A stretch of 64,000 nt of DNA. Source: a virus. A program made the position numbers and the translations under genes. Below are positions 22,426-55,765 of the stretch, piece after piece; within the stretch, counting starts at the first letter, position 1, and every line of letters begins with the position of its first letter. A model generated the notes under the pieces. That model was given only the letters and a program-made list of their open reading frames with translations. It had not been told where the DNA came from and ran no database searches. The stretch is from positions 5,881-69,880 of IMG/VR virus record IMGVR_UViG_3300028840_002623. The stretch is one strand, 5' to 3'.

Positions 22426-23349
22426 TCAAGCCTTTTTTAGAGCCGTGGCTGATGAACTCCGGGAAGGCACTTGAGCCCCCACCTGTTTGTAAAACTCAAT
22501 TGTGTCTTTCAATCCTTCTTTCAAACTCAATTCCGGTTCCCAACCCAATCTTAAAATCCGGGAGATGTTCGCACAACTATGGCGAATGTCATATTGTAAT
22601 TGAGGAACGTGGTCTACAAATAATTTCTTCCCAGACACGTTCACTAACATCAGAAGCAAATTCAAGAGCGTATGTGACACCCCGGTTCCAACGTTGTACA
22701 CTCCGGTATGTCGGGATTTTCCCATCAACATAAGAGCCTTCACGACATCCTTCACGTGAACAAAATCCCGGCTCTGCATTCCATCCCCGTTGATTTGAAT
22801 TCGGTTGCCCCGGAGAATGCTGAGCGTGAAGGAAGGAATTGCGGCTTGAAGGTTCATTTGTCCCGGTCCATATACGTTGAAGAGCCTTAAACAAACTGTA
22901 GAAAGCCCGTGAACCCTTCTGTATAATCCGGTATAGATTTCTGCGGCACGCTTATTCACCCCGTAAGGACAGACGATGTTGTCACCCAACACTTCCTCTT
23001 CAGAAATCTTTTGACTCAGGCTATGCCCATATATAGCTGCAGAGGAAGTGAATATGAACCGGATATCTGACCGGGAATCCCGGCTTGCCTCCAAAAGGTT
23101 CACCGTTGTCAGTAAATCATCCCCCAAAGCCCTTTCCGGGAATTCAAATGAAGTGGACAGGTTTGTTTCCGATGCCAGGTGATATACCACATCCATCCCG
23201 TCAACTAATTCACAACACAATTCCCCGTCAGTCAAATCCATTCCGGTTTTCTTATCAGCCCCCGTGACAACATCACCTTGTTCCCGCAAAGCCTGAATTA
23301 AATGTCCGGCTATAAATCCGCTTGAGCCTGTTACTAAACATTTGGCCAT
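22426..23349 (-). CDS. NAD-dependent nucleotide-sugar epimerase/dehydratase
   Basis: TGSSGFIA, SSAAIYG, YGVNK, RLFNVYGP, RDFVHV. Confidence 0.92.
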   Translation of the reverse strand: MAKCLVTGSSGFIAGHLIQALREQGDVVTGADKKTGMDLTDGELCCELVDGMDVVYHLASETNLSTSFEFPERALGDDLLTTVNLLEASRDSRSDIRFIFTSSAAIYGHSLSQKISEEEVLGDNIVCPYGVNKRAAEIYTGLYRRVHGLSTVCLRLFNVYGPGQMNLQAAIPSFTLSILRGNRIQINGDGMQSRDFVHVKDVVKALMLMGKSRHTGVYNVGTGVSHTLLNLLLMLVNVSGKKLFVDHVPQLQYDIRHSCANISRILRLGWEPELSLKEGLKDTIEFYKQVGAQVPSRSSSATALKKA

Positions 23350-23978
23350 ACTGCATTTCCCTTTTCATCATACTGTTGTCCGCAAAAGCCTTCCATAGCC
23401 GGGTGGTCAGGAAAAGGAACACTTGGCCATTTAGTCTCAACGGATGAATGGCGTAACAGAGAATGTTCTATCAAAGGATGAACCTTGTCCCTGAGCCAAC
23501 GCATATCTTTTACACGTGGTTGATTTCTCCGGCAAAGCCTTAAAACTTCCCGGTGTAAATGTTTGGGCAAAACTCCGCATTTGATTCCCCACATCCCACC
23601 GGACATTGGAAGCCGGGAGTGGTGGGGGTGGTCTTTCATTTCGTGAGCGTTCAACCCGGATTGTTCCCAAGCCTTCACTGCTTCTGCTTCCTTCACGTTC
23701 AACCGGGAATCAGAGTCACGAAAAATTACACGCTCACCTTTAATGTCCCAAGCGGCAAGAAATCTCCAAAACATTCCTGAATGAATCCGGCTCTTGGGTT
23801 TGAAAACAATTTCACAACCCAAATTCCGCAACTCAGTTGCAACAATTCCCTTCTCACAATAATACCGAATTGTCCACCCCGGAAAAATCTCAGGAGCCAA
23901 TTGGGCATTGCATAAAGCCCCGTTGTAATAAACGGGAGAATTGCCATACAAACTTATACTGATTATTTTTTTAGCCAT
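23334..23978 (-). CDS. Glycosyltransferase-like protein (GT-A)
   Basis: KIISISLYG, GMFWRF, RDSDSR (DxD), GGMWG. Confidence 0.6.
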   Translation of the reverse strand: MAKKIISISLYGNSPVYYNGALCNAQLAPEIFPGWTIRYYCEKGIVATELRNLGCEIVFKPKSRIHSGMFWRFLAAWDIKGERVIFRDSDSRLNVKEAEAVKAWEQSGLNAHEMKDHPHHSRLPMSGGMWGIKCGVLPKHLHREVLRLCRRNQPRVKDMRWLRDKVHPLIEHSLLRHSSVETKWPSVPFPDHPAMEGFCGQQYDEKGNAVWPNV

Positions 23979-24592
23979 TCGTCATCATACCCAAAATTGT
24001 CAAAATCCGGTTCTGCCCATTTTATGATATTGTCTATTGTCTTCTGGTCAGCGTATAACTCCAACAAAGAAAGCCGTTCAATTTGTTCGCCTTCCACCTC
24101 TGCTTGAGCAACAATTTTTTCCGCTGTTGTATTGAGTTTGCTTATTTCAATACCATCCTTCCAAAACGGGAGTTGTATCAATTCCTTCTCAAGCCGTTCA
24201 AGATGAACAATGTGCAAAGGCTGAGCCGGGTTCAACCATTCGGTTTGGTTCTGTAACAGCGGTTGTTTTTGGCGTTCATTTTCCGAAACACTTAACATCC
24301 ATTCTGTAAATTTCGGAAAGTCATTTTGGGCTCCGCTCAAAGCCCGGAATTTGTATTGGTCTAAATGAGCCAACCGACAAGCACTGTACCAGATACTTGA
24401 AGCACGAGTAAATGGATTGCGAACAACAGTCCAACGGAAGTATTTGTCATAGTGGTCTACAATCCGATTGTTGTGAAACCCGGCTTCCAATAAACCATCT
24501 GAAAAATGTTCGTTCAGAATCCGGTAAATGGTATGTGTCCCGGCTTTTGGCGTTGACACATAAACAAATCTTTGTTTTTTATTTATTCTCAT
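23963..24592 (-). CDS. Sulfotransferase (family 2-like)
   Basis: 5'-PSB loop PKAGTHT; 3'-PB VRNPFTR..S. Confidence 0.85.
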   Translation of the reverse strand: MRINKKQRFVYVSTPKAGTHTIYRILNEHFSDGLLEAGFHNNRIVDHYDKYFRWTVVRNPFTRASSIWYSACRLAHLDQYKFRALSGAQNDFPKFTEWMLSVSENERQKQPLLQNQTEWLNPAQPLHIVHLERLEKELIQLPFWKDGIEISKLNTTAEKIVAQAEVEGEQIERLSLLELYADQKTIDNIIKWAEPDFDNFGYDDEWLKK

Positions 24593-25193
24593 ATTCCCAC
24601 CTCACTCCTATTTCATCCAAATTGTCGCACACCCATTCCAAATACCTTCCCGGTATATATTCCTTCCAATAACCGGGGACAACTTGACCAATGTGGTCAC
24701 CGTGAACTTGATATCGGTCCACTTCATTAAAACTTTCCAATACATCGGCTCTTTTTTTATTTTGCTCAACGCTGAATTTGCCGCTGATGCGGTGTTGAAT
24801 ATTCGGGGGTGTTATAATCCCAAATGTATCTTCAATCATTTTATAAATTGGACTGTGGTCATTATAAAACTCTTCATACCGGAGAATTGGAGCATGAGGA
24901 CCAACAAGCATTTCTTCCAACAGATTGAAACTCATTATTGTTCGCCTGACAACGGTCACAATATCATCGTCAACAACTTCCCTTTCATCTCTGTATCGGC
25001 TCATCCTGACTCTCAAAAGGGATGCAGCAACATCGTGAGGTTCACGGACAGATGCTATGACCATTGAGCCATCTGGCTCCCAATCTATGGGATGTGTTTT
25101 CGGAATGTTCATTTTTGGAAACACCGAATCCAATATTTGCCATACAACAGTTGACCCACTCCGGGGTATTCCGCACATTACAATATCTTGCAT
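24579..25193 (-). CDS. Sulfotransferase (family 1-like)
   Basis: GIPRSGST, KTH, VREPHDVAAS, LRYEE, G...G.WK. Confidence 0.85.
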   Translation of the reverse strand: MQDIVMCGIPRSGSTVVWQILDSVFPKMNIPKTHPIDWEPDGSMVIASVREPHDVAASLLRVRMSRYRDEREVVDDDIVTVVRRTIMSFNLLEEMLVGPHAPILRYEEFYNDHSPIYKMIEDTFGIITPPNIQHRISGKFSVEQNKKRADVLESFNEVDRYQVHGDHIGQVVPGYWKEYIPGRYLEWVCDNLDEIGVRWEYENK

Positions 25194-25783
25194 AAATCTT
25201 CCCTCAGATAAAAAGTGTTCCCTCCAAGCCTGCAAAACTCTTTGTAACCATTCATCTGGTACTTACTGCCTTCCATACAAACCAACTTGGGTGTATAGGA
25301 AAACAGATTCAAACTTTGCCACGCTTCATAATTCATTCCTTCAACGTCAATGGATAGAAAATCAATCTCACGTGGACAATTATATTCCTTCAACACTTGA
25401 GTCAAAGGTCTCATGAATACTTTTGTTTCAGTGTAACTCACTCCGTGATTTACTTCAGCTGATATTTTCACTTCCTCTTTGAAGGTGGAAACTTGTTCGC
25501 AACAATAGAAAGTTTTTTCACCTTCTGTAAGCCCAATTGCGCAATTGACACAACTGACTTGAGGATTGTCTTTGTACATCTCCTGTAACTTCTCAAATTG
25601 GGTGGGCTCAGGTTCAATACAAATGCCACCCCAGCCCCCGGTGTTCAATAACCGAATTGAGTTTGAATTCCAAAACCCATCTGCGGCTCCAACATCAACT
25701 ACAAAGCCTTCATCTTGGTCTTTGAATAGCCAATACAAGATTCTATCTTCACCGTGCTGTCCGCATCCTTCACCCTCTTTCAC
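25178..25783 (-). CDS. FkbM-family methyltransferase
   Basis: GQHGED, VDVGAADG, IEP, IDFLSIDVEG. Confidence 0.9.
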   Translation of the reverse strand: MKEGEGCGQHGEDRILYWLFKDQDEGFVVDVGAADGFWNSNSIRLLNTGGWGGICIEPEPTQFEKLQEMYKDNPQVSCVNCAIGLTEGEKTFYCCEQVSTFKEEVKISAEVNHGVSYTETKVFMRPLTQVLKEYNCPREIDFLSIDVEGMNYEAWQSLNLFSYTPKLVCMEGSKYQMNGYKEFCRLGGNTFYLREDLCKIL

Positions 25784-26564
25784 TTGCTGTCTCCAATATC
25801 AAATCCTTCCAAAACTCAAACCAGCATATGTCCATACGCTGACTGTGAAATAACTTCTTCAATTCCGGGTATTCCATCTTCAATCTTTCCGGGGTCACTT
25901 CACCCCAATGATTGACTTGAAGACAGGGCAAACCTTCCAACAACCGGGTTGCCGGGCTTTTCAATACAATCGGAATAGAGCCTAACAAAATTGACTCCCA
26001 ATGGCGGTGACAATCTGGTCCTGCTCCCGGTGGGCTCAAAATAAAAGGATGGCTCAACATCTGTTCGTAAAATTGATTCATTGATACGTGGTCAAACCCA
26101 CCTTCAGTTGTAACCCATTCTTTGTTCTCAAACATCTCATACAATCCGGCTCTTGGGTTGACTGGTCTGTCGTGGCGTTGAGGTATCTTTCTCCAGAAAT
26201 TCATATACACTAAATTGCGTTCAGGCAATCTCCCAACCTCCATCGCCTTTCTCATTCTTTCTTCTCCATCAGGAGATGTCCTCAAGCCGATTGGAACCGC
26301 TGTAACACGGGGGCTGGACGTGGCCACATTATTACTGAACCACATTTTGACGTTTGAAGGAAGTTGTTCAGCCATTTCGTCAGTACAATCCGCATCCGAA
26401 AAACTTGTCACCAAAACGCACTCCGGGTAATGGGACAAAATCCCGAATTGTTTGACCACAGTATGAGTCCGGGAATAGACAATTGGTCCTTCTTGGATTC
26501 TTTCCGATTTGAAAGTCACTCCGGCAAGTTCAGCCAGTCGTTGATTGTTGATAAAATTTTTCAT
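25770..26564 (-). CDS. Exostosin/GT47-like glycosyltransferase
   Basis: FILSPPGAGPDCHRHWESILLGSIPIV. Confidence 0.7.
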   Translation of the reverse strand: MKNFINNQRLAELAGVTFKSERIQEGPIVYSRTHTVVKQFGILSHYPECVLVTSFSDADCTDEMAEQLPSNVKMWFSNNVATSSPRVTAVPIGLRTSPDGEERMRKAMEVGRLPERNLVYMNFWRKIPQRHDRPVNPRAGLYEMFENKEWVTTEGGFDHVSMNQFYEQMLSHPFILSPPGAGPDCHRHWESILLGSIPIVLKSPATRLLEGLPCLQVNHWGEVTPERLKMEYPELKKLFHSQRMDICWFEFWKDLILETASERG

Positions 26565-27310
26565 AGTGTCGCCTTGATTAATGTTTCCAAATTCTTATGT
26601 CTGTCCCACTGATGTATTACCGCAGGAATGTCGCCATCCATATTTATTATCTTGTTGTCTTTTATCTTCACGTGCCCCCTGTGAATGTAACCGACAGTGT
26701 ACACTTCACCCTCTTCATTATCCCATACCCGGCAATCCAATTCTTCCCGGATTAAATAGTTGTGTGCGGCTTGGTCCTGAGGCTTGTCAGTCCGGGGTTG
26801 AATCCGCTGAACTTCCTCTACAAGCCTTTTGAGGTAAAATAACACCGAATCCCGGTCACCGCAGGAACATCCTACGCATGATATAAAGCTGTTTGATAAT
26901 TTTTCCAATACTTTCCCCGTATAACCCAGTGAAATCCAGAGAGAATTGTAGGGGCATGTCCCTATAGACATGCTCTGGTCTTCCAGATATACGTTTAAGC
27001 CTTCCGGGGGCAGATATTCACCCGGATTTTTCTGAAATACAACGTCTCTGGTATCGGTCAAGAATATGCCTTCACAGGGTATATCCCGGAGTGCTTCCTC
27101 AATACAAACAAACCGGGCAGAGTGCACTTTGATTCTTGGCTTGGGAACCGCTCTCAAATCAACATCCCACTTCTTGGCTTCCTCTGCCGCACCACCGTTG
27201 GCGAATAGTAAAATGCGCCCATCAAACCCGGAGTTGCGGAGTGATTTGAGAAATGGTCTGATTTGCTCAGCGTTATATCCACGGGCATATCCGGCTACAA
27301 CATCAATCAT
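26561..27310 (-). CDS. Glycosyltransferase-like protein (GT-A)
   Basis: LTDTRDVVFQKNP, DQAAHN, IHQWDR. Confidence 0.7.
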   Translation of the reverse strand: MIDVVAGYARGYNAEQIRPFLKSLRNSGFDGRILLFANGGAAEEAKKWDVDLRAVPKPRIKVHSARFVCIEEALRDIPCEGIFLTDTRDVVFQKNPGEYLPPEGLNVYLEDQSMSIGTCPYNSLWISLGYTGKVLEKLSNSFISCVGCSCGDRDSVLFYLKRLVEEVQRIQPRTDKPQDQAAHNYLIREELDCRVWDNEEGEVYTVGYIHRGHVKIKDNKIINMDGDIPAVIHQWDRHKNLETLIKATL

Positions 27311-27972
27311 TTTTTTATTTCCTCCAATGGAGTGAAGTCATTCCAAAGCCTTTCCGATTCAGGCTTCATTGCTTCATTAAGTTGGTCCAGAGGCAAGGGA
27401 GTTTTTGAGTACAATCCTGTCCACGGGATTTGATGACCATTCCCTACATATCCGAGTGGCTTGTGAATGTAACCTTTCCACTGTGATAAAAAATCATCCA
27501 AACGCTCCCATTCATATACCTCTGGACCGGGTGGTTCAAGGTCGTGAATGATAATTTGTTCCGCCAAATCTCCTAAATGAAGGACAGCCGGAACACGACA
27601 CGCTGTAAAGGTGTCTACAAAAAGAAGGTTATGATGTCCCAATCCTTTTGCAATGAATTCATAATACGCATTCATGGCGTCAAATTCCCCCGGTGGCAAT
27701 TCCGAAATCCTGGTTTGATTTTTGGCTTGGAACTGCTGAACAAGCCACTGGTGTGATACACCCGGAGAATAATGGTGGCGGATTTCGGTTGCCCACCGGG
27801 GGTCATGCTCTATGGTTGTCAAATGTTTCGCTGACCTTAAATGAGGTGTAGAATAATTCCCACAGCCGCACTCAACAATTGTTTCCGGTTTCAAAACTTC
27901 TAACACGGCTTTGAGAAGGGCTTGATGTGAGCCCCATGTCCGTTCTATGTCCCATTTTTTAGTCAGTCCCAT
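27307..27972 (-). CDS. Class I SAM-dependent methyltransferase
   Basis: VECGCGNYST, TIEHD, LFVD, IIHD. Confidence 0.75.
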   Translation of the reverse strand: MGLTKKWDIERTWGSHQALLKAVLEVLKPETIVECGCGNYSTPHLRSAKHLTTIEHDPRWATEIRHHYSPGVSHQWLVQQFQAKNQTRISELPPGEFDAMNAYYEFIAKGLGHHNLLFVDTFTACRVPAVLHLGDLAEQIIIHDLEPPGPEVYEWERLDDFLSQWKGYIHKPLGYVGNGHQIPWTGLYSKTPLPLDQLNEAMKPESERLWNDFTPLEEIKK

Positions 27973-28612
27973 TTGGCCATCCTTTCTTTTTTCGCTCATC
28001 AAATATTCGTTTGTCCTTCACCCATAATTTTTTCGCTTTGATTAGGTGAGGTGGTCTTTCCGGTTTTTCTTTCCGTTGCCAGTGGTCGTGGTATTGAATC
28101 AAATAATCCACCTGCTGGAAAGCGTTCATCTTGATTGCATACTCTTGTAACTCTTGGTCAGAGAAATAATGAAAATACTCTTCACGGTATGGACCATTGC
28201 CTTCATATGCTCTTTCTATGAATGAACGACCAATCCACGGGCTCACTGCGCACTTATGTGTCCAACCGAATTCATCGCCAATCGGTTGCATAACTCCGAA
28301 TGTGTTCGGAAATCGGCTGAGGAATATATCACCAATCTGTTCCGCTGTACTGTTCGGGTCAGGATATAAATCATCACCTGCGCAAACAACGATGTTTCCG
28401 GGAACACTGCGACAAAGAATATTTGCAGCAGTAGGAAATCCCATCCACTCATTTTGAACAACAACAATTTCGGCTTCAGGGAAATCCTCATTGGACATCG
28501 GGGGGTTGACTAACACCGCAACATTGTAACCGAAAGCGTGCCAGGTGTCAATCATCTCCCGGCTCTTTTCTAAATGAACAGTTGGCCATACAACCCATAC
28601 ATTCGGTTTCAT
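27959..28612 (-). CDS. GT2-family glycosyltransferase
   Basis: VVWPT, GFPTAAN, AGDD, YFHYFSD. Confidence 0.7.
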   Translation of the reverse strand: MKPNVWVVWPTVHLEKSREMIDTWHAFGYNVAVLVNPPMSNEDFPEAEIVVVQNEWMGFPTAANILCRSVPGNIVVCAGDDLYPDPNSTAEQIGDIFLSRFPNTFGVMQPIGDEFGWTHKCAVSPWIGRSFIERAYEGNGPYREEYFHYFSDQELQEYAIKMNAFQQVDYLIQYHDHWQRKEKPERPPHLIKAKKLWVKDKRIFDERKKKGWPNGTD

Positions 28613-29253
28613 TTCGCATATCCTTTTTTACCATTGATGAGATTCTTAAAACGCTTTGCCCCTCTGGTGTGCATAATGACCGGGCTTTTTTCTTCTGGAC
28701 ATCTCCGTTGAGTCAGTCCTGTTATCCAAGTATAGGATTGAGGCAACTCTACATAATTGATTGTCATCCTTTGTATTGCCATCTCCAATGTTCGTTGGTC
28801 CCATGCTTCCCTTCCGTTGGGTAATGTATCTGGATATTTTTCATTCAACCGAATCCATTTGTCAACAAGCCGTTGACAAGCCATCGTGTTCCCCAAGTAC
28901 AACGTGCCAGACAACAATTCCCTTCCCTTGGCGAAATGAACAGCGGCAATATCGGCTTCCAAATCATTTAACAATACCGGGGGTTCAACCATTATCGCAT
29001 CAACGTCTAAATACAATAAAGGGTTGGGGGAAAATCTTTCCAGAGCGTATTGAATGAATAAGGCTTTGTACTGAGTATTCTTTTGCCAACTTCCCAAATT
29101 GGGAACCCCAGCAACCCAATAACCATAGTCCAGCCCCTCCAAAGATTCTTTCAGTGTCTCTGCTTCGTGTTGGTATGGGGTGTCCACCGTATAATACGCT
29201 ATGACCAAAGGGGTGTGCGATGTTTTGTAAAAAGATTCAGCCACTATATCCAT
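28609..29253 (-). CDS. Nucleotide-diphospho-sugar transferase (GT-A)
   Basis: LYLDVDA, LSGTLY, WDQ, PVIMH. Confidence 0.75.
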   Translation of the reverse strand: MDIVAESFYKTSHTPLVIAYYTVDTPYQHEAETLKESLEGLDYGYWVAGVPNLGSWQKNTQYKALFIQYALERFSPNPLLYLDVDAIMVEPPVLLNDLEADIAAVHFAKGRELLSGTLYLGNTMACQRLVDKWIRLNEKYPDTLPNGREAWDQRTLEMAIQRMTINYVELPQSYTWITGLTQRRCPEEKSPVIMHTRGAKRFKNLINGKKGYAK

Positions 29254-29266
29254 TTTGTTCCTTCCC

Positions 29267-29605
29267 TTATTTGTCCCTCAAAAATAAATACTCCTGCACT
29301 TCAGCCAGAGTTGCAGTTTGTGTTTCAAATTTTTCTTTGAGTTCAACCATTCTTTTTCCCTCTGGGCTGGATTCCATTTCTGGTTCAATTGGGGGTGATG
29401 TCATTTCCTTTTTCTTTTCATCCCACGTTCCACCACATTTTGCTTGAACATCTTCTTTGAATCTGGAAACATCAACATCATCTTCCATATCTGGAAATAT
29501 ATTATTCAATTCCTTTTTTAATTCAATATCGTCAAGATGTTTTTTTGCGTTGTCATTTAAAACTCGCAAAATCTTTTTTGTACTTTTTTGATAATAAATA
29601 ATCAT
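29267..29605 (-). CDS. Hypothetical protein, possible tail-fibre chaperone
   Basis: Follows the last tail gene; AT-rich. Confidence 0.55.
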   Translation of the reverse strand: MIIYYQKSTKKILRVLNDNAKKHLDDIELKKELNNIFPDMEDDVDVSRFKEDVQAKCGGTWDEKKKEMTSPPIEPEMESSPEGKRMVELKEKFETQTATLAEVQEYLFLRDK

Positions 29606-29606
29606 T

Positions 29607-30203
29607 TTACGCTCCCCATATCATTTGGTCATAATAAAGTGTGTAGCCACCCCAAGTTCCGGTCTGAGTTGTAATAGTAACACCACTTGAAGCCCATGCC
29701 GTAACATCTGCATATTCATTCCATCCGGTCACCACTACATAACCCACCCCACTTGTTTGTAAACCGCAAACGTGATTATCAACTCCCCATTGTTGTGGCA
29801 CAGGTGGATTTGGAGCACTGAATTGATAATCTAAAACAGTACCATATTGGTCACTTGAACCTGTACCCATAGAAAAAGATAATCCATCATCAATTACACC
29901 ACTCGCTAAATGAACCCAACGGAAAGCCATAGCATAAGGGTCAAATCCCAAAGAACCCGTTGCAATACTCCAACCAGCACTTGTGGTAACTGTTCCTTGG
30001 GCAACATAAGTTGAAAGAGTTATTCGGGCTGAATTGGTTCCATCATGGTCGTGGTCTTGTGCCGCAGTATAGGAAAGCCCCAACCACTCTTCAAGATGTA
30101 TATCATTGTCACGGAAATCCTCCATCAAATCTGCAGTGATGGGGGAATCAGCGTCAATTGCACTGTCTGCGATTATTGTAAATGGTTTACTTGGTGCAGC
30201 CAT
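29607..30203 (-). CDS. Tail tip / receptor-binding protein
   Basis: IDADSPITADLM...RDN N-terminus, HDHDG motif, beta-rich C-terminus. Confidence 0.6.
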   Translation of the reverse strand: MAAPSKPFTIIADSAIDADSPITADLMEDFRDNDIHLEEWLGLSYTAAQDHDHDGTNSARITLSTYVAQGTVTTSAGWSIATGSLGFDPYAMAFRWVHLASGVIDDGLSFSMGTGSSDQYGTVLDYQFSAPNPPVPQQWGVDNHVCGLQTSGVGYVVVTGWNEYADVTAWASSGVTITTQTGTWGGYTLYYDQMIWGA

Positions 30204-30204
30204 T

Positions 30205-30675
30205 TTATACTCCTATTCTGTATTCAGGGGTTTCAATTGCTCTTGGCAATTGCTTTTCTTCATCTGTTATGATTCTATTTTTATACTTGTTTATGTCCTT
30301 CATCTTTGGGTAGTTTTTAAGGTCACCGGGGTAAACAATAAAGCGATATGCAATCGGTGTCCCACATTCCGGACATACAGTAATTTTCAAGGTGAATGGT
30401 TTGAATTCTTTCGGGAGATATTTGATGAAGTATCTGATGGTGCGATTTTGAACACAGTTATGAAGACACAGTTTGGCTTTCCTGAAATCTTTTTCCCTCT
30501 CAAACCGGACAAACTCCATTTTGATTGGCATCTCCTTTATCAAATTATAGAACACCCGTGTCAGGAAAGGTTGGTCAATGCCTTTGCCTTCTTTAAACTT
30601 CAATTCAAATTCGCTGTCACCCATCTCCGCAATTCTCTTTTGCATCTTTGGGTTCAAAGGTAAATTTGGAAACAT
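30205..30675 (-). CDS. Hypothetical basic protein with Cys motifs
   Basis: AGGAG RBS; CLHNC and CPEC. Confidence 0.55.
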   Translation of the reverse strand: MFPNLPLNPKMQKRIAEMGDSEFELKFKEGKGIDQPFLTRVFYNLIKEMPIKMEFVRFEREKDFRKAKLCLHNCVQNRTIRYFIKYLPKEFKPFTLKITVCPECGTPIAYRFIVYPGDLKNYPKMKDINKYKNRIITDEEKQLPRAIETPEYRIGV

Positions 30676-30686
30676 GTCAGCCACTC

Positions 30687-45653: not shown

Positions 45654-45656
45654 TCA

Positions 45657-46887: not shown

Positions 46888-47537
46888 GTCACAAACTCCT
46901 TCAAAAAATGTTCCTTCAAACTTTGTTTCGGAAAATCTTTCAATGCGCTTGTACCATCCTCCAAATTGATGACTTCGTGACCCGGAAATAGTTTGTGCAA
47001 ATCACGGGTCACGAAAGTCATACCACGGAGAAATCTTTCATATGAACGGGAGTTTGGTTTGTCGCTGTAAGCGTTGTGAAAGTTTTTCTCACCTTTCGGG
47101 GACAACTGCATATCATACCCCAAAAGGAATATTGGATTGGCTCTAAAAATAAGAGCAAGGTTGATAGCACAGGCACCTGTACTTGAATTCCAACCCAAGC
47201 CGTCAGTCCCAAGCCCCCTGTTATATTTTTTCATCACCTTTAAATATTCCGGGGGGTCAAAACGCTTGAGCGAGTTTGAGTTGGATATTACCTGTCCACC
47301 TTCCTGAACGTAATCATCCAGAGCGACACGATGTTGTTTAAAAAATACACCGTCACCGAAAACAGTAATTGGAACAATGTCAGCACCCAGATAGAATGCC
47401 GCATTACATCCAAGGATATTTCTGCCCCGGAGTTTGTTCCAATCAAAGCCTTCCAAAGATGGACCACCTCCAATTATGTAACAGGGTTCATCCTGCCAAA
47501 TGGGGTGGTCTGGTAACCAATAGGTGCCATCGTTCAC
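46884..47537 (-). CDS. Maf/DUF115-like glycosyltransferase
   Basis: CYIIGGGPSL, LGCN, SSTG..AINLA, IFLLGYDM. Confidence 0.7.
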   Translation of the reverse strand: MNDGTYWLPDHPIWQDEPCYIIGGGPSLEGFDWNKLRGRNILGCNAAFYLGADIVPITVFGDGVFFKQHRVALDDYVQEGGQVISNSNSLKRFDPPEYLKVMKKYNRGLGTDGLGWNSSTGACAINLALIFRANPIFLLGYDMQLSPKGEKNFHNAYSDKPNSRSYERFLRGMTFVTRDLHKLFPGHEVINLEDGTSALKDFPKQSLKEHFLKEFVT

Positions 47538-48083: not shown

Positions 48084-49157
48084 TTAGACAGTACCGTGAA
48101 CAATCCCGGTATTGTCGTTGATGTCTGCCCTCAACTGAGGTACCATTATTGCCATTACCTTGAAGTTGAGCTGCATGCCACCTCTGGTTTCCCACTGAAC
48201 AGTGGTAATGTCCATGCCCATGACTTCACGTATAACGTCAGAGGTCATCTGAACAAGGAGCATTACATAATCAGTAGCAGAACCCGGAGTGGTGTCAAGA
48301 TAATCAAGAGTGCGAACATCCTGAATATCGGTTATTGCTTTGAGGCGGTCACGCAGTGTGTTGTCGCCTTTCGCTGAACTGTAATCTTCATCAAGCGTTT
48401 TGTCCCACTTAATGGAAGTGTACAGCATGTAAGGACCATAATGATATGCGGCTTTCGCCTGTTCAATCATGGCCAGTACGTCAGTGACCGTGTCCGCAGG
48501 AGTATAACCACCTGCCGCTGGGCTGGTCATTGTCTTGGTGAGACGTTTTGGATAATTGGTATATCCATAGATGGTGCCTCCACCGAAAGCATATGTGCCA
48601 TAAGTACCACACAGAAGTTTTTCAGCGGTTTCAGCAACCCTTCTTGCCGCAAGTTCAGCAGTGGTCGTGTCAAGCGGTGAACCGCCATTACGTGATACCA
48701 TTACCTGACGTGCACTGAAGTTGAAATCCTTATGAATGATAGGCAGGGGCAGGTTGGTGAGTTCAAACACCGGGCGGTCAGCTGTACTCTCCCGGAGCCC
48801 ATCCATACTGATATCAGCTTCACTGATGTCACTCTGGGTCTCAGTTTCAAGCACTGTCTTTGCCATCCCATTAGGTATATTGAACGTGAGTCCCATCCCA
48901 CGCAGGTCAGCAACGGCTTTGAGTCTGGGCTTTGCCGCTTTAACAATAGCTGAATCCAGAAGTTTCCAGTCATCCTTTCTGAGCGATGCTGTTGCATTTG
49001 TCAGCGGCACGGCTTCTGGTCCATTGTCCCCGTTGACTGTGATATAATGCCTGTTGTCGTCACCGATGTACGGTCTCAGAACATTGGCGTCCATTCCGGC
49101 TTCCATGAGGGTTGCGGCAACACTCCCGTGACCCTGTCCGTTCATAATAAAATCCAT
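48084..49157 (-). CDS. Major capsid protein (HK97 fold, linocin-M18-like)
   Basis: LPLPIIHKDF..SAR..SRNGGSPLD...AARRVAE; follows protease and decoration genes. Confidence 0.88.
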   Translation of the reverse strand: MDFIMNGQGHGSVAATLMEAGMDANVLRPYIGDDNRHYITVNGDNGPEAVPLTNATASLRKDDWKLLDSAIVKAAKPRLKAVADLRGMGLTFNIPNGMAKTVLETETQSDISEADISMDGLRESTADRPVFELTNLPLPIIHKDFNFSARQVMVSRNGGSPLDTTTAELAARRVAETAEKLLCGTYGTYAFGGGTIYGYTNYPKRLTKTMTSPAAGGYTPADTVTDVLAMIEQAKAAYHYGPYMLYTSIKWDKTLDEDYSSAKGDNTLRDRLKAITDIQDVRTLDYLDTTPGSATDYVMLLVQMTSDVIREVMGMDITTVQWETRGGMQLNFKVMAIMVPQLRADINDNTGIVHGTV

Positions 49158-49228
49158 ATCAATCTCCTTTTAAAAGTTTTGGATTTTCGTTTGTCATCTT
49201 CTTCATCAACCCCTTCATTGGGATTTGT

Positions 49229-49654
49229 TTAATGAAGCATAACACGCATGAGAGTGTCAACTGCACCTGAACCACTCAGGTCCAACGCTTCACGTGCGGT
49301 GGCAATCGGTGTTCCCGTGGTGACTGCCTGAAGTGTGCCATCTCCTGCACTCTCAAGGTCAGCCCCTATGGCAACATTTTCTCCGGCTTTGAGGAACATC
49401 TGAACTTCATTGCCCGGAAGTTCAACATTCATAGAACAAAGGTCACCGGATGAATAGTCATCGTCAAGAGTGTTTCCCTGAAGTGCATCAATCTCAGCAA
49501 TGAGACGCTGAGCCGCACCGCCTGCAGTGGAATGAACCACGCAAGTTCCAGAAGAATCTTCTTCAACAAGATGACCGGGGGAAATTGTCCCGGCTGCAAC
49601 AATTTCTTCTCTGCGAAAGGTTCCAATCAGATGAACCTGATTTTCAGTACTCAT
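49229..49654 (-). CDS. Capsid decoration/cement protein
   Basis: AAGTISPGHLV, GENVAIGADLESAGDG; between scaffold and MCP. Confidence 0.75.
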   Translation of the reverse strand: MSTENQVHLIGTFRREEIVAAGTISPGHLVEEDSSGTCVVHSTAGGAAQRLIAEIDALQGNTLDDDYSSGDLCSMNVELPGNEVQMFLKAGENVAIGADLESAGDGTLQAVTTGTPIATAREALDLSGSGAVDTLMRVMLH

Positions 49655-49731
49655 ATTCAATCTCCTTTATAAGTGAGTAACTAAAATTTTTTCAGTTTGA
49701 GCCATATTGTGTAAGGGAATAGACACAGTGT

Positions 49732-51366: not shown

Positions 51367-51380
51367 TACATCCTCCCAAT

Positions 51381-51474
51381 AAAAAAAGGACCACCTCAAT
51401 CAAGAAGTGGTCCTTTTTACACAATGGCTCCTACATTCAAAAGGTATTATTACAGATAATTCATTAAAAGTAAA
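51381..51474 (-). promoter_or_regulatory. Putative promoter followed by a terminator-like hairpin upstream of the capsid genes
   Basis: TTTACT-17-AATAAT with TG; AAAAAGGACCAC..GTGGTCCTTTTTTT just before the GGGAGG RBS. Confidence 0.5.
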
Positions 51475-51487
51475 GAAAAAAATAAAA

Positions 51488-51679
51488 TTATTTTTCATCC
51501 GGCTCTTTCGGGGGCTTCAATGTCTCTTCATTTCGGATGATGTCAATCATCCCATTCTTGAACTCAATTGTCATCTTCCCGTACCATCTCCGTTTTTGAG
51601 CTGACACCAACAGTCCGTTTGTCCAATTCAATTCTTCCTCTTGTTTCTGTAACACTTTCGGGTTTTTAATTGTTTCCAT
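51488..51679 (-). CDS. Small DUF2292-like protein
   Basis: YGKMTIEFKNG.I..I...ETLK. Confidence 0.55.
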   Translation of the reverse strand: METIKNPKVLQKQEEELNWTNGLLVSAQKRRWYGKMTIEFKNGMIDIIRNEETLKPPKEPDEK

Positions 51680-52592
51680 TTTTCCTCCACCATTTGATTG
51701 TTCTTTGCAAACCTTTATGCAGTTCTGTTTTTGGTTCCCAATTTATTTCTTTCTGGGCTTTTGAAATGTCCAATTCTCTTGCTGGTTGTCCATCCGGTTT
51801 GCTTCTGTCCCATATTATTCCTCCATCATACCCCATCAACTCCCGTATCAAATAAACCAACTCATGTATTGCAACGCTTTTTCCCGTTCCCAAATTCATT
51901 GGTTCAGGACTGTCATACATTTCCATAGCGTCAACAATTCCTTCAGCACAATCATCTACAAATAAAAATTCACGGGTTGCTTCCCCTGTCCCCCAAACTT
52001 CCACCGTTGGCAGATTATTTTTTATTGCTTCATCAAACTTCCGAATCAAAGCCGGAATGACATGTGATGACTCCGGGTTGAAATTGTCTTCAGGTCCATA
52101 CAGGTTGACCGGAATGAGATAAATGCCGGGAAAATTATATTGTTCCCGGTATGCCTGTGTCTGAACCAACAACGCTTTTTTCGCAATGCCGTATGGCGCA
52201 TTTGTTTCTTCCGGGTATCCCTTCCAAATGTCTTCCTCTTTGAATGGAACCGGAGTGTATTTCGGATATGAACAAACTGTGCCAATTGTTACAAACTTCT
52301 TCAATGGTTTATTTGACCAACAGGCTGCATCTATCAACTGAACTCCCATCATCAAATTATTATAAAAGAATTCAGCAGGGTGTTCCCGGTTTGCTCCAAT
52401 CCCACCACACATTGCGGCAAGATGAATAATTGCTTCCGGTTGAAACTTGTCAAGATAAGAAATTACTTGGTCAGGATATAACAAGTCAACCTCATTGTGA
52501 GTTGGTATTCCCACCTCATGCCCTCTTTGCACCAAATGAAAATTTACATACTTTCCTAAAAAACCATGCCCACCTGTCACCCATACTTTCAT
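51666..52592 (-). CDS. fcl: GDP-L-fucose synthase
   Basis: GGHGFLG, LAA.CGGIGAN, CSYPK, YGIAK, NLYGP.DNF..SHVIPALIRK, KPDGQP. Confidence 0.95.
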   Translation of the reverse strand: MKVWVTGGHGFLGKYVNFHLVQRGHEVGIPTHNEVDLLYPDQVISYLDKFQPEAIIHLAAMCGGIGANREHPAEFFYNNLMMGVQLIDAACWSNKPLKKFVTIGTVCSYPKYTPVPFKEEDIWKGYPEETNAPYGIAKKALLVQTQAYREQYNFPGIYLIPVNLYGPEDNFNPESSHVIPALIRKFDEAIKNNLPTVEVWGTGEATREFLFVDDCAEGIVDAMEMYDSPEPMNLGTGKSVAIHELVYLIRELMGYDGGIIWDRSKPDGQPARELDISKAQKEINWEPKTELHKGLQRTIKWWRKNGNN

Positions 52593-53539
52593 TTCAATGC
52601 CTCCATTTCTGAATTTAAGATTTCCATCAACATTAAATCAAACGGCAGAATGGGCTCCCAATCCAACTTTTCTTTCGCTTTGCTTGCATCACCACAAAGG
52701 TATGGAACCTCAAGTGGTCGTTTCAATCGGGGTGATTCAACTGTATAATCTCTCCAATCTAATTTGACCAATTCAAAAGCCCGTTGACACAATTGCCAAA
52801 CTGTATGTGTTTCCCCGGTTGCTAATACATAGTCATCCGGTTCAGGCTGTTGAAGCATCAACCACATTCCCCGAACATAGTCAGGAGCATAGCCCCAATC
52901 CCTAATACCTCCTAAATTTCCCACTTCAAGTTTGTCCTGTAACCCGGCTTTTATTCGGGCAACCGCACGGCAGACTTTCCTTGTAATGAACGTTGGACCA
53001 CGTCTGGGACTTTCGTGATTGAAAAGTATTCCGCAAGACACATGCAGTCCGTATGCCATCCGGTATGTTTGGGCCAAACGGTGTGCCGCAAGTTTGGCAA
53101 TTCCATACGGGGAAACAGGAGCAAATTCATTCTCTTCATTCATTGTCCCTTCTACATCTCCATACATTTCGGAAGTTGAAGCCTGATACATTCGGATTTC
53201 TCTTGGACTGTCTTTTATCGCTTCCAAAAGCCGGAGTGTTCCAAGAGCGTTTACATCCATGGTATATTCTGAACACTCAAAACTGACCTTCACATGCGAT
53301 TGAGCGGCAAGATTGTACACCTCATCGGCTTGGCTTTCATACAACACGTGTCTCAGGCTTGTACCATCGGTCATATCTCCAAAATGTAAGTGAAGGTTAT
53401 CAAATACATGGTCAATCCGTTGAGTGTTGAACTGTGATGCCCTTCTGACAATTCCGTGGACTTCATACCCCTTGTCCAAGAGCAGTTCAGCCAAATAGGA
53501 ACCATCTTGTCCGGTGATTCCGGTAATGAGGGCTTTCAT
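52589..53539 (-). CDS. gmd: GDP-mannose 4,6-dehydratase
   Basis: ITGITGQDGSYLAE, AAQSHV, QASTSE, SPYG.AK, LFNHESPRRG, RDWGYA. Confidence 0.97.
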   Translation of the reverse strand: MKALITGITGQDGSYLAELLLDKGYEVHGIVRRASQFNTQRIDHVFDNLHLHFGDMTDGTSLRHVLYESQADEVYNLAAQSHVKVSFECSEYTMDVNALGTLRLLEAIKDSPREIRMYQASTSEMYGDVEGTMNEENEFAPVSPYGIAKLAAHRLAQTYRMAYGLHVSCGILFNHESPRRGPTFITRKVCRAVARIKAGLQDKLEVGNLGGIRDWGYAPDYVRGMWLMLQQPEPDDYVLATGETHTVWQLCQRAFELVKLDWRDYTVESPRLKRPLEVPYLCGDASKAKEKLDWEPILPFDLMLMEILNSEMEALK

Positions 53540-53961: not shown

Positions 53962-53973
53962 TTACATTCTCCT

Positions 53974-55023
53974 TCAAAATAATTCTTTACCAACCCACGT
54001 ACTGCGTCGTTTTGCTTCCCTTACAGTTTGTGGTATTCTTTTGAACTCATCTCCCACATGGGATTTTCTTGGCAACTCTGACCTCAATGAGTCGTTGACA
54101 TTTTTCTTCTTTTCTCTTAATGACCGGGCTTGTCCCTTTTGCACTTCTCCAACGCTGGCTGGAAGCCATGCACAACGACAATTCGGATGTCTGGGTATCA
54201 GCCCCCGTGCCTCATCAATAGTGAATACAGTTCCTTCCAAATCTGCACATTGGTCGCAAACCTTCTCATCTTCAGCGGTGCTCCATTCTACATCCGCTGT
54301 CACTCCTTCAACTCCCAACTGTTGAAGAGCATCCAGCTGTCCTTCCGAATGTGCGTAAATGATTTCAGTCCGGGCTAATGTCATTGCCCGTTGTCTTGTA
54401 ATCCCGGTAATGGTCTCTGTCATATTCCGGGCAATCATTCTTGGACTCAAACCGTTGGCCATTCCATCCGCCAATACCCGGCTCAACTGTTGGGACATTG
54501 CCGCTGTAATCCCTTTCAACTCTTCAAATGACCGGGTATACAACAACTGTACTTTGCTTGTCATCTCCGGTTGAGCGAATGATGACTCAATAAACTGTTG
54601 TCTGCTTCCTTGGTAAAAATCCGGATTTTCAGCCATTATCTCCGGGTGCATTTCCGTATAACTCCGAACAGCACCCCTTCTGTACGATGAATGGACATAA
54701 GGGGCTGTCCACGGGTCACCCACTATGGGGTCAACAAACAACGGGGCATTTGGTTCAGCGAGTTGTTCTGTAAGCCACGATTGAAATGAGGTTATTTTTT
54801 CGGCATCAGTTCTGAACCTCCACGCTTGTCTTTCCGGGAGTTGGTTTGCAACCAATAACTCCCGGTTGAAGGCAAATGGTTCGCTTTCCTCAAGCCCCAA
54901 AACATCCAACTTCCATATTGCTTGGATTATCAAACTGCGGATATAATAAAACCGCTTGCGCATTTCGGCTTCATATGCCCTGCGCAATGTTGTTGTCCGG
55001 GTTGGGTCAAGTTTGAGTACCAT
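53974..55023 (-). CDS. Head morphogenesis protein (SPP1 gp7 / Mu F)
   Basis: RA.TLARTE, W.TAED.KVC..C, IPRHPNCRC. Confidence 0.92.
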   Translation of the reverse strand: MVLKLDPTRTTTLRRAYEAEMRKRFYYIRSLIIQAIWKLDVLGLEESEPFAFNRELLVANQLPERQAWRFRTDAEKITSFQSWLTEQLAEPNAPLFVDPIVGDPWTAPYVHSSYRRGAVRSYTEMHPEIMAENPDFYQGSRQQFIESSFAQPEMTSKVQLLYTRSFEELKGITAAMSQQLSRVLADGMANGLSPRMIARNMTETITGITRQRAMTLARTEIIYAHSEGQLDALQQLGVEGVTADVEWSTAEDEKVCDQCADLEGTVFTIDEARGLIPRHPNCRCAWLPASVGEVQKGQARSLREKKKNVNDSLRSELPRKSHVGDEFKRIPQTVREAKRRSTWVGKELF

Positions 55024-55765
55024 GTTTTTCCCTTATAGCAGTTGCACTTATTGCCTCTGTGTCCATATCCAATCGGATTTCTCTGATGCCCCACCCTACT
55101 TTGCGTCCATAACACACCTCTTTCACGTCAGGCACGACAATAACTTTTATTCTGTCCCCGAATACATCTTGTATCATCTTCTTTCGCTCTGCTGTGGTGT
55201 ACGGATTTGAAGGTGTTATCATTGTATCCCGGAGTGCAACACAAACATCTTTCCCTTCATCCAATACCGATTGAAACAATTTGATATGACCTTCGTGTAA
55301 TGGTTGGTATCTGCCTATGAAATAACTGTACTCATAATTGTCTTCTTTTAACACCAACATTAAACTCCGCAAAGATTCCATCGGCAAAAGATGATTGTGG
55401 TCAACTTTGTAATGGTATTCTTCCTCTGAAGGCTCTTCATAAAAATGTCCTTCACGCTCTGGCATATCCCGTTTTACATACACCCAAATCGGATGACACA
55501 CTTCATCAATTTCTTTTCTCACTTCCTCCATTGGAGCAATTACAGATACAACAACGGGTTTTTGTTCACTGAGAACCTTGGCAAGCCGGGCAACACGTAA
55601 GTTATGCTCACGCCTATCATCCCGGCTGAACCCGGCTCCCAGTGATATTGAATCCCGCATTTCGTCACCATCTAACAAAACACCATCCAAGCAATCCGCC
55701 AGCGGTCTGCCCACTGTAGTTTTTCCCGCACCGCTTTGTCCTGTCAGCCACACAATCTTATTCAT
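55007..55765 (-). CDS. cysC: Adenylylsulfate kinase fused to a HIGH-motif nucleotidyltransferase
   Basis: WLTGQSGAGKTT, LDGD.MR, GFSR.DR, YEEP; then IGRYQPLHEGH, NPY, ISATAIR. Confidence 0.88.
   Translation of the reverse strand: MNKIVWLTGQSGAGKTTVGRPLADCLDGVLLDGDEMRDSISLGAGFSRDDRREHNLRVARLAKVLSEQKPVVVSVIAPMEEVRKEIDEVCHPIWVYVKRDMPEREGHFYEEPSEEEYHYKVDHNHLLPMESLRSLMLVLKEDNYEYSYFIGRYQPLHEGHIKLFQSVLDEGKDVCVALRDTMITPSNPYTTAERKKMIQDVFGDRIKVIVVPDVKEVCYGRKVGWGIREIRLDMDTEAISATAIREKHGTQT

Follow-up and report, generated by a model that had tools for sequence, protein, structure and literature searches.

A glycan gene set in the late operon

The window analysed here is a 64,000-nucleotide stretch (bases 5881–69880) of the 69,880-bp IMG/VR record IMGVR_UViG_3300028840_002623, which has direct terminal repeats and a completeness rating of 100%, and whose gene content is that of an uncultured, virulent-looking, siphovirus-type phage. 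Fourteen predicted glycan genes are found on its minus (late) strand among the genes for head and tail morphogenesis, and together they may encode a soluble cytoplasmic glycan-decoration system within the late operon. An initial annotation, made from the letters alone, had read them as a pathway for a sulfated, fucosylated and methylated glycan. Comparison of the open reading frame (ORF) list and of the window proteins with Pfam, PHROGs and NCBIfam recovered all 14, each on the strand and at the site where that annotation had located it:

55007–55765, minus strand: 252-aa fusion, candidate minimal 3′-phosphoadenosine 5′-phosphosulfate (PAPS) synthase
52589–53539, minus strand: Gmd, GDP-mannose 4,6-dehydratase
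51666–52592, minus strand: Fcl/GMER, GDP-L-fucose synthase
46884–47537, minus strand: Maf/MptE-like (sialyltransferase-like) transferase
28609–29253, minus strand: GT-A-like nucleotide-diphospho-sugar transferase with a DVD motif
27959–28612, minus strand: glycosyltransferase (GT)-like protein, possibly GT2-related
27307–28002, minus strand: class I methyltransferase-like protein of an uncharacterised family
26561–27310, minus strand: phage-typical protein of 249 aa, possibly GT-A-like
25770–26564, minus strand: GT47/RXYLT1-like glycosyltransferase
25178–25783, minus strand: FkbM-family methyltransferase
24579–25235, minus strand: sulfotransferase-like protein 2
23963–24592, minus strand: sulfotransferase 1 (Sulfotransfer_2 family)
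23334–23978, minus strand: GT-A-like protein with a DSD motif
22426–23349, minus strand: NAD-dependent UDP-sugar 4-epimerase-like short-chain dehydrogenase/reductase (SDR), last gene of the operon

The late genes occupy the minus strand from ~59.4 kb down to 22.4 kb, with the GC skew flipping at the same points, and the plus strand carries the replication genes (PolA with a uracil-DNA glycosylase-like domain, clamp loader, RecA-like, exonuclease and SbcCD-like; SNF2, primase and DnaB-like genes of the same set lie outside the window). Late gene order starts with TerL, portal, fusion, Mu-F, a 141-aa ORF, Gmd, Fcl, protease/scaffold, decoration and capsid, continues with an acidic 149-aa protein, the Maf-like gene, three small membrane proteins, connector-region genes and a 1636-aa fibre, then passes through neck, terminator, tube, chaperones, tape measure, Dit, a 607-aa fibre and three small ORFs, and is closed by a ten-gene glycan cluster (22426–29253, minus strand). 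The earlier placement of the fusion between portal and gpF, and of gmd and fcl upstream of the protease/scaffold gene, was borne out. The Maf-like gene does follow the capsid gene, but with the 149-aa ORF between them, and the ten genes do lie after the tail, but separated from the tail-fibre gene by the three small ORFs (29267–30693). The landmarks around the glycan genes are:

55758–57266, minus strand: portal, upstream neighbour of the fusion
53974–55023, minus strand: Mu-F, downstream neighbour of the fusion
49229–49660, minus strand: decoration protein, candidate acceptor
48084–49157, minus strand: major capsid protein (PF19774, Linocin_M18, phrog_771), candidate acceptor
37069–37491, minus strand: probable tail tube protein, by its position between tail terminator and chaperone genes, candidate acceptor
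21917–21931, minus strand: terminator-like hairpin and T-run downstream of the last cluster gene, consensus match only

The tail tube candidate has no family match of its own, and the terminator-like sites of the region (17 against 12.0 ± 4.1 expected by chance) are not above chance. Overlapping stop and start codons, as initially described, are present at all nine junctions within the ten-gene cluster (4–58 nt) and at the head-module inserts (portal/fusion 8 nt, fusion/Mu-F 17 nt, 141-aa ORF/gmd 4 nt, gmd/fcl 4 nt), and the Maf-like gene overlaps the next gene by 4 nt. In agreement with the initial annotation, neither signal peptides nor transmembrane helices were apparent in the 14 glycan proteins on a hydropathy scan, used without a dedicated signal-peptide or transmembrane predictor: their highest 19-residue Kyte–Doolittle mean is 1.61, and neighbouring operon membrane proteins reach 1.8–2.4 on the same scale. 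Among 83 ORFs from the whole 69.9-kb genome, scanned at E ≤ 1e-3 to 1e-2 as for all genome-wide family absences reported here, no integrase, polyprenol-phosphate transferase, flippase, polymerase, hydroxymethylase or TET gene was found, nor any lysogeny, export or lipid-carrier gene.

Sulfotransferases and other transferases

The protein encoded at 23963–24592 is firmly predicted to be a sulfotransferase. It matches PF03567 at 28.2 bits (cut-off 22), and its AlphaFold2 (AF2) model (predicted local distance difference test, pLDDT, 93.7) was aligned by VIA-align with PAPS sulfotransferases in all of the 50 matches listed (Z 7.4–9.3), the best being 4ndz, a heparan sulfate 2-O-sulfotransferase (Z 9.3, root-mean-square deviation (rmsd) 3.5, 166 aligned), and the top matches comprising heparan sulfate 2-O-, 6-O-, 3-O- and N-sulfotransferases together with cytosolic SULTs. 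These rows are tied within 1–2 Z, so that carbohydrate and protein substrates are indistinguishable by fold. Foldseek of the same model returned nothing at E ≤ 0.001 (best 0.057), and the family profile gave only a chance match to solved structures (E 0.9). In 32 sequences of this 35-member family (ST2), K16, T19, R58, P60 and R63 are invariant and S66 is conserved in at least 90%; PKxGT/PRSGST is presumably the 5′-phosphosulfate loop and R..P....S the 3′-phosphate motif.

Its neighbour at 24579–25235 is a sulfotransferase at moderate confidence. The PF13469 match (4.3e-5, 24.3 bits) is below the cut-off of 27, as are those of all three orthologues (22.3–24.8 bits), and the first 12 of 18 non-significant rows in a PDB profile search were sulfotransferases (E at least 0.12). 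CGIPRSGST and R..P.D...S are invariant in all four sequences (P24, R25, S26, G27, S28, T29, R64, P66, D68 and S72), and the orthologues suggest a real start at 25193. The pair of sulfotransferases named in the initial annotation can thus be kept, both with PAPS-binding motifs, one assignment firm and the other moderate. Neither protein matched a PHROG or, by tblastn, any deposited phage record; viral contigs with relatives of the 23963–24592 sulfotransferase made up 114 of 338 pattern-matched IMG/VR stretches.

The five GT-like genes of the initial annotation fared unequally, with two moderate (28609–29253 and 25770–26564) and three weak assignments. The first of these is placed with PF03407 proteins by tblastn to the ORF L009:12547–13206 (1e-21), which matches that family at 31.5 bits, and by an orthologue in locus L109 (22.8 bits, cut-off 22); the second has matches below cut-off to PF03016 (9.8e-5) and PF24785 (2e-4), and the weak GT47/RXYLT1_C matches recur in all three of its orthologues. 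For 27959–28612, the GT-like label comes from tblastn to L011:5603–6361 (PF00535, 3e-6), with no Pfam match for the protein or its three orthologues. The 249-aa protein at 26561–27310 gave leads from the protein atlas, its nearest named clusters being GT_PLOD/GT8/GT6 and its fold matching domains fused to GT29/GT7 proteins in phages; it has no Pfam match, and a solved-structure search gave only a chance match. The protein at 23334–23978, which retains 59–70% identity in three relatives, likewise has atlas leads (hexosyltransferase/GT8/Nucleotid_trans neighbours) and no Pfam or PDB match.

The FkbM-family methyltransferase is a firm assignment from family profiles (PF05050 54.8 bits, cut-off 22.7; TIGR01444 61.7 bits, cut-off 37.7). 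The second methyltransferase proposed initially, 27307–28002, is only weakly so, by its invariant E-C-G-x-G ... IEH ... D motif: none of 78 homologues has a Pfam domain, and a profile of 28 family sequences gave only three, non-significant PDB matches (E 0.25–0.54), all S-adenosylmethionine (SAM) methyltransferases, a profile of four sequences giving nothing. The Maf-like gene is a moderate assignment, with a phrog_4603 match of 3.2e-18 over positions 1–172 of 178 and 22.4 bits on PF01973, below the cut-off of 34.6; in loci L123, L125, L126 and L134 such a gene adjoins ST2-like genes.

The GDP-fucose route and the epimerase

Of the two enzymes of the GDP-L-fucose route that had been proposed, Gmd is a firm prediction and Fcl one that is strong by comparison with solved structures. 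Gmd scores 416.3 bits on TIGR01472 (cut-off 415), spanning 2–313 of 316 residues, and matches PF16363 at 1.5e-121. Fcl matches PDB 1bsv (1.1e-61, residues 2–306), GDP-fucose synthases fill the first 18 PDB rows, and the catalytic positions of E. coli Fcl have their counterparts in T105/C107, Y..K and the histidine of SHVIP, the Cys, Tyr, Lys and His being, we assume, the epimerisation/reduction residues; on NF047922 it scores 291 bits, below the cut-off of 500. The single epimerase of the initial annotation also held, as a firm assignment of 22426–23349 (PF01370, 7e-48) closest to UDP-hexose 4-epimerases, with a UDP-glucose 4-epimerase as best PDB match (4zrm, 8.6e-38). Among the window proteins, none was recognised as belonging to a fucosyltransferase family; near the fusion gene in loci L005, L011 and L017, GT10-like genes occur.

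An APS-kinase/nucleotidyltransferase fusion as candidate PAPS synthase

The gene first annotated as a cysC fusion does encode an adenosine 5′-phosphosulfate (APS) kinase-type domain, but the partner domain is not of the known type: it resembles nicotinamide mononucleotide adenylyltransferases (NMNATs), and the protein is one of a large, as yet uncharacterised family, to which 1125 of 1852 candidate proteins were assigned (E ≤ 0.001). Its description as an APS-kinase/nucleotidyltransferase protein is firm from sequence. Residues 1 to ~125 form the APS-kinase-like N domain, with APS kinases as best PDB profile matches (8a8h, 1.4e-21), and residues ~140–250 form an HxGH/ISxT nucleotidyltransferase domain (PF01467, 32 bits). 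The AF2 model (pLDDT 86.4) has APS kinases as best Foldseek matches (2gks/5cb8/7yq1, 3.5e-9), aligned over 145–181 columns with rmsd 2.3–3.9. In the P-loop GQSGAGKTT (residues 9–17), G9, S11, G14, K15 and T16 are at least 90% conserved across 25 family members, and L31, D32, G33, D34, R37, G45, F46, R51, N55, I76, A77 and P78 are invariant. The DGD..R and GFS..R..HN segments match those of 2yvu, 8a8h and PAPSS1, archaeal and human APS kinases, column by column; we take LDGDxxR, GFSxxxRxxN and the following I(S/A)P to define the APS-binding segment. The PF01583 match (63.5 bits, cut-off 21.1) covers profile positions 3–108 of 152 and stops before the lid, and the protein falls below the NCBIfam APS-kinase cut-offs (61.1 against 138.7; 63.5 against 244). 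In the C domain, H157-x-G-H160 and I239-S-A-T...R245 are at least 90% conserved. Since this domain matches PF01467 and NMNAT models only, with no membership of PF01747 or CysD, an ATP-sulfurylase-like role for it is argued entirely from context.

On balance, we lean slightly towards a bifunctional enzyme, in which the small C domain would supply APS and the kinase would convert it to PAPS. The domain order is reversed in two of the 25 aligned family members and the two halves are separate adjacent genes in several loci, which argues for coupled steps, and the contexts of the family suggest a minimal PAPS synthase.

An opposing view, which we hold to be unlikely, is that the fusion makes no PAPS and acts either as a NadR-like nicotinamide riboside kinase/NMN adenylyltransferase or in the synthesis of another 3′-phosphorylated nucleotide donor for sulfotransferase-fold enzymes, such as the CDP-phosphoramidate 3′-phosphate of the Campylobacter O-methyl phosphoramidate (MeOPN) pathway. 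The best solved relatives of the C domain are indeed NMNATs (1f9a, 4.8e-10; NCBIfam NMNAT models, 1e-9), the kinase match ends before the lid, and a NADAR gene lies beside a Salvovirus-type phage homologue and near the kinase/nucleotidyltransferase pair in locus L011, but the best structural matches are all APS kinases and the APS-binding motifs are invariant in the family. The two methyltransferases of the window recall the MeOPN system. PMC11800397 describes the APS-kinase homologue Cj1415 as acting with Cj1416–Cj1418 so that CDP-phosphoramidate 3′-phosphate is formed; in the 83 ORFs, however, no phosphoenolpyruvate-utilising glutamine-kinase-like, glutamine-amidotransferase or amidohydrolase family was found. 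Sulfotransferases near the gene in viruses, and in Peribacteria that lack PF01747 and CysD, also speak for PAPS, as described below.

Relatives separate a conserved core from donor genes

Three true relatives were identified in the sulfotransferase scan, two of them complete genomes (G006, 68,117 bp; G008, 85,788 bp) and one a fragment (L110, record G007). Identity to the window in G006 and G008, respectively, is 70 and 60% for TerL, 71 and 80% for the capsid protein and 83 and 78% for the tail tube protein. The post-tail cluster is kept in the same order in all three relatives at 39–70% identity, and the Maf-like gene occupies the same place behind the capsid gene in G006 (64%) and G008 (53%). 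Neither complete genome has the fusion, an APS_kinase match over cut-off or orthologues of Gmd and Fcl, which indicates that the donor genes are lineage-specific add-ons. The pathway initially proposed as one unit thus stands for the Maf-like gene and the post-tail cluster, which by gene content are the conserved system, but not for the fusion and gmd-fcl, which are accessory inserts at gene junctions of the head module. The relatives have larger clusters than the window, which hold an additional methyltransferase, a radical SAM/SPASM enzyme and one or two further sulfotransferase-like genes.

In L110, two NUMOD3 and TnsA-like endonuclease genes (5196–5894 and 10621–11295) are inserted between cluster genes, and homing-endonuclease traffic through clusters of this type may help to explain their variable gene content. 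Equal length in three homologue tables, its whole basis, suggests a fourth relative (37,876 bp) that combines the fusion, a sulfotransferase and a methyltransferase-like gene.

The fusion family in viruses and cells

A scan of viral contigs with the fusion as a single protein found nothing; an alignment-based scan with the family found 25 loci, of which 19 were scanned with Pfam (L003, L019 and L023 were left out as duplicates or subsets of L004, L018 and L024, and L025–L027 as the most distant). Glycosyltransferases and methyltransferases are frequent neighbours. In 11 of these 19 loci the fusion or split pair has a sulfotransferase-family match nearby, which exceeds the Pfam cut-off in eight. 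Within 6 kb (145 ORFs, E ≤ 5e-4), eight of the ten closest loci have such a match, five of them over cut-off, and L006 and L010 have none; within 4 kb (93 ORFs, E ≤ 1e-4), three of the nine further loci have one (L015, L021 and L024) and six do not. A phmmer search of 15 sulfotransferase-like ORFs against 510 neighbour ORFs linked almost none, so that hidden sulfotransferases are not recoverable in that way.

Among cellular loci, only five genomes of Candidatus Peribacteria, which are CPR bacteria, and a single short gammaproteobacterial contig gave full-length matches; in the remaining 74 retained loci the match was to the kinase part only. In Peribacteria (L029–L033), the nucleotidyltransferase and kinase genes are adjacent and lie in clusters with GT2/GT4, methyltransferase, SLH and sortase genes. 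PF01747 and CysD were each found in none of the five genomes, whose completeness is not established, and PF01507 gave only 19–25-bit matches. Sulfotransferase families were matched in four of the five, with a sulfotransferase directly upstream of the pair in G003 and G004 and 6.7 kb away in G002 (ORFs of foreign loci were called by a longest-ORF rule, and two Peribacteria sulfotransferase-like ORFs missed by it were recovered by six-frame search). The pair may therefore represent a non-canonical route of sulfate activation in minimal genomes.

Several observations weigh against tying the fusion to glycan sulfation. The count of 11 loci has no random-locus baseline. Salvovirus-type phage homologues (27–31% identity) lie in early regions beside NADAR and MazG, with no annotated sulfotransferase in those regions. 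The split pair at L014:8016–10507 lies beside a TET-associated glycosyltransferase (PF20691, 2.2e-30) and ParB_N, a DNA-modification-like context that does not fit glycan sulfation. The co-occurrence that the initial annotation set as a check was also one-sided, since sulfotransferases lie near the fusion in 11 of 19 fusion loci but a fusion homologue was present in only one of 80 ST2-selected viral loci, within the retrieved flanks.

Proposed action, acceptor and alternatives

In the scheme that we propose, the core would consist of the Maf-like transferase and the post-tail GT-like enzymes, two PAPS-type sulfotransferases, FkbM, the second methyltransferase-like protein and the UDP-sugar 4-epimerase. 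As lineage add-ons, Gmd and Fcl would convert GDP-mannose to GDP-L-fucose, and the fusion would carry out at least the step from APS to PAPS and probably also that from sulfate and ATP to APS, through its small HxGH domain. Made alongside the structural proteins, the enzymes would build a sulfated, methylated and probably fucose-containing glycan on a cytoplasmic acceptor, one of the window GTs presumably using the fucose; the likeliest acceptor would be a conserved virion protein (capsid, decoration, tail tube or fibre), modified before or during assembly. All chemistry in this scheme is read from sequence, predicted fold and gene context, as are the acceptor, the fucose substrate of a GT and the small domain's part as an ATP sulfurylase.

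We consider the case for a virion protein as acceptor to be evenly balanced. It is made by late, coupled expression, soluble enzymes, the lack of export, lipid-carrier and lysogeny genes, and the recurrence of such cassettes in head and neck modules. Phages that differ in capsid family carry sulfotransferase/GT/methyltransferase cassettes within their head or neck modules: L004 has its cassette between capsid and connector genes, L010 between portal and capsid, L121 between capsid and Neck1, and both L123 and L125 between protease and head closure; in L012 it is beside the capsid gene and in L024 beside head completion and tail tube genes.

Other findings are neutral or point away from this acceptor or from parts of the scheme. 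There is no Ser/Thr-rich extension on the capsid, decoration or tail tube orthologues, and no acceptor site was identified on them. The ST2 loci L116 and L117 lie beside ribonucleotide reductase genes rather than virion genes, and cargo genes are commonly found where a late operon ends. In G008 the cluster-side tail-fibre genes are replaced and the cluster is kept, so adjacency to the fibre is not conserved. The relatives, with three or four sulfotransferase-like genes and no APS kinase, Gmd or Fcl, indicate that the donor genes are dispensable, and fucose need not belong to the core glycan. As a common acceptor, we rejected both the 1636-aa fibre, which is absent in G008 and replaced in G006, and the tail-fibre genes next to the cluster, which are replaced in G008.

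The alternative that survives best is that a host cell-surface glycan or glycoprotein (lipopolysaccharide, capsule, S-layer or flagellin glycan) is remodelled late in infection and the virion stays unmodified, for example with receptors masked so that progeny are not trapped on debris; we judge this improbable, if still to be taken seriously. Maf-family enzymes are known as flagellin glycosyltransferases, but neither an initiating phosphoglycosyl transferase nor a flippase or polymerase was found in the 83 ORFs. The Peribacteria pair lies in cell-surface glycan clusters, a membrane protein resembling Wzy_C/O-antigen ligase is encoded near the fusion in L010, and operon ends often hold cargo genes; in the window, on the other hand, the 14 proteins have no membrane segment by hydropathy and their genes are translationally coupled to structural genes, and cassettes of other phages are found between capsid and neck genes. 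As the 83 ORFs include no integrase, seroconversion of a lysogen is unlikely.

Much less probable is that these are auxiliary metabolic or cargo genes with no acceptor on the virion, in which case the product would be a sulfated glycoconjugate or small molecule, either soluble or secreted, or the nucleotide-sugar and sulfur pools of the host would simply be redirected. The donor genes do look like insertions, gmd-fcl is followed by a terminator-like hairpin, and phrog_1962 (glycosyltransferase) and phrog_3347 (sulfotransferase) are classed by PHROGs as 'moron, auxiliary metabolic gene and host takeover', but ten to fifteen co-ordered transferase genes are conserved at 39–70% identity in three relatives, cassettes recur within head and neck modules, and no exporter is present. 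Sulfotransferases and FkbM-type O-methyltransferases are, to our knowledge, not known as DNA modifiers. Placement of the glycan on phage DNA, as a hypermodified base that escapes restriction, is very improbable: DNA hypermodification by phage glycosyltransferases has been described (Pyle et al. 2024, as cited in PMC12619734), the L014 pair has the neighbours described above, and radical SAM, amidoligase and GGACT genes of the genome are unexplained, but the 83 ORFs include no dCMP/dUMP hydroxymethylase, TET/JBP or deazaguanine gene, the glycan genes lie on the late structural strand apart from the replication genes, and cassettes of relatives occupy capsid–neck positions.

Other features of the genome

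The head module had no match, and hence no near relative, among 50,697 deposited phage records (megablast); the capsid protein is closest to that of Brevundimonas phage StAshley (36.9% identity), whose head module has no annotated glycan genes. A Caulobacterales host, prompted by the Brevundimonas and Caulobacter phage matches, was rejected because the G+C content of the window (40–48%) does not fit that of this order. A tRNA scan and Rfam gave nothing, and no endolysin family was recognised anywhere in the genome. The phage encodes PolA, RecA-like, DnaB-like and sigma-70 region 2 proteins and has strong Shine–Dalgarno sites. Two proteins of the 68,117-bp contig (P0135 and P0159) are named by NCBI as belonging to a Candidatus Heimdallarchaeaceae metagenome-assembled genome, a label that may be a binning artefact.

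The three small membrane proteins of the head-to-tail region (45279–46887, minus strand) comprise 155 aa (signal peptide and transmembrane helix), 93 aa (lipobox-like LIGNGC) and 124 aa (C-terminal transmembrane segment), the first being kept directly after the Maf-like gene in G006 and G008. They may be lysis or spanin-type genes, and spanin-type genes would point to a diderm host. The 1636-aa fibre (40359–45269, minus strand) has four N-terminal ISNWNTAYGWGDW-type repeats, and a long Gly/Ser/Ala/Thr-rich region with YadA-head-like repeats; given its absence in G008 and its replacement by other DNA in G006, it appears to be a swappable adhesin cassette at the head–neck boundary. In a 423-aa protein (38298–39569, minus strand), only the C-terminal ~120 residues are common to G006 and G008, the N-terminal ~300 residues being specific to the window with a weak MG2/Ig-like match, so that it looks like a connector protein that gained a display domain.

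Between fcl and the protease gene (51381–51678, minus strand) lie a ~62-codon ORF, an AT-rich stretch and a perfect 7-bp hairpin (GGACCAC/GTGGTCC) with a T-run, terminator-like and positioned after the gmd-fcl insert. The TTG start of the longest ORF for the protease is overlapped by the hairpin, and the true start is therefore probably further downstream; the PHROG match of this protein sets in only at residue 75. On the plus strand, Amidoligase_2 (1.4e-29), AIG2/GGACT gamma-glutamyl cyclotransferase-like (8.5e-14) and DUF932 genes stand in a row (61306–63621), all kept in G008 at 41–52% identity, and may form a peptide/amide-modification module that has no connection with the glycan genes. 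A 473-aa radical SAM protein (1877–3298, plus strand) and a protein weakly similar to a phosphatidylglycerol lysyltransferase C-terminal domain (4086–4841, plus strand) are encoded among the early/replication genes; radical SAM genes also occur in or near the glycan cassettes of L005, L009, L021, L022, L109 and L111.

Comparison with known systems and implications

As the initial annotation had stated, no phage-encoded sulfation of virions or phage glycans was found in a full-text search of the published literature. PHROGs names phrog_3347 a galactose-3-O-sulfotransferase; sulfotransferase genes are therefore present in deposited phage genomes, and we found no study of them. Mycobacteriophage virion glycosylation was reportedly the subject of Freeman et al. 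2023 (Cell Host Microbe 31:1216). Like that system, the one considered here has predicted phage-encoded soluble glycosyltransferases in or beside the structural operon, which would here, too, modify the virion. It differs in its sulfotransferases, PAPS-type donor enzyme, GDP-fucose route and Maf-like transferase, in a host that, on present evidence, is no actinobacterium, and in the lack of a C-terminal Ser/Thr extension on the capsid and tail tube orthologues. PMC12619734 places the mycobacteriophage glycans at the C-termini of the tail tube and capsid subunits and credits them with protection from anti-phage responses.

Among known enzymes, the fusion resembles the bifunctional PAPS synthases, human PAPSS1/2 (1x6v, 2ax4) and the ATP sulfurylase-APS kinase 2gks of Aquifex aeolicus, in joining an APS-kinase domain to a nucleotidyltransferase-superfamily domain, the kinase domain giving the best match in both sequence and fold. 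It differs in a shortened kinase lid and in having an NMNAT-like partner (PF01467) of ~110 residues instead of a PF01747 ATP sulfurylase of ~390 residues, and its family in variable domain order and halves that are sometimes separate genes. In Campylobacter jejuni Cj1415–Cj1418, as described in PMC11800397, an APS-kinase homologue likewise acts with a nucleotidyltransferase to give a 3′-phosphorylated nucleotide donor for a glycan modification with methylation, within the O-methyl phosphoramidate donor pathway; that pathway needs a Cj1418-like glutamine kinase and a Cj1417-like amidohydrolase, neither family being present in the 83 ORFs as judged by family profiles, with no direct Campylobacter-protein queries. 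The Maf-like gene shares phrog_4603 and, weakly, PF01973 with Maf/Cst-type enzymes (PF01973, PF06002, phrog_4603); in contrast to them it is a core of ~200 residues only, and the genome has no nonulosonic-acid synthesis genes. Jumbo phages of Caulobacter and Brevundimonas contain homologues with 26–32% identity, and a number of these carry the annotation alpha-2,3-sialyltransferase.

Chlorovirus PBCV-1 glycosylates its capsid with virus-encoded GMD/GMER and a glycosyl/methyltransferase. It has its own GDP-L-fucose route and cytoplasmic transferases, with methyltransferase activity among them, and a fucose-containing, methylated glycan on the major capsid protein, in likeness to the system proposed here; it is, however, a eukaryotic giant virus with unrelated enzyme families for most steps, and we know of no sulfation of its glycan.

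Sulfation of a virion glycan would be a modification not yet described for phages, and the genes suggest that virion glycosylation is broader and chemically richer than in the actinobacteriophages, where it is so far known. We advance only tentatively, and as one joint reading, that tailed phages, as a widespread trait, sulfate a glycan of their own particles into a mucin- or heparan-like anionic coat, that this is fed here by the smallest known PAPS synthase, whose ~110-residue NMNAT-like domain would be a new minimal type of ATP sulfurylase, and that Peribacteria use the same enzyme. If the fusion is a complete PAPS synthase, it would be a third, very small type of sulfate-activating enzyme and would explain surface sulfation in some minimal-genome bacteria without Sat or CysDN; small and soluble, it is directly amenable to in vitro work. 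A sulfated coat, if true, would change the charge of the particle, with possible effects on adsorption, sticking to mucus or exopolymers, recognition by grazers or the immune system, and stability.

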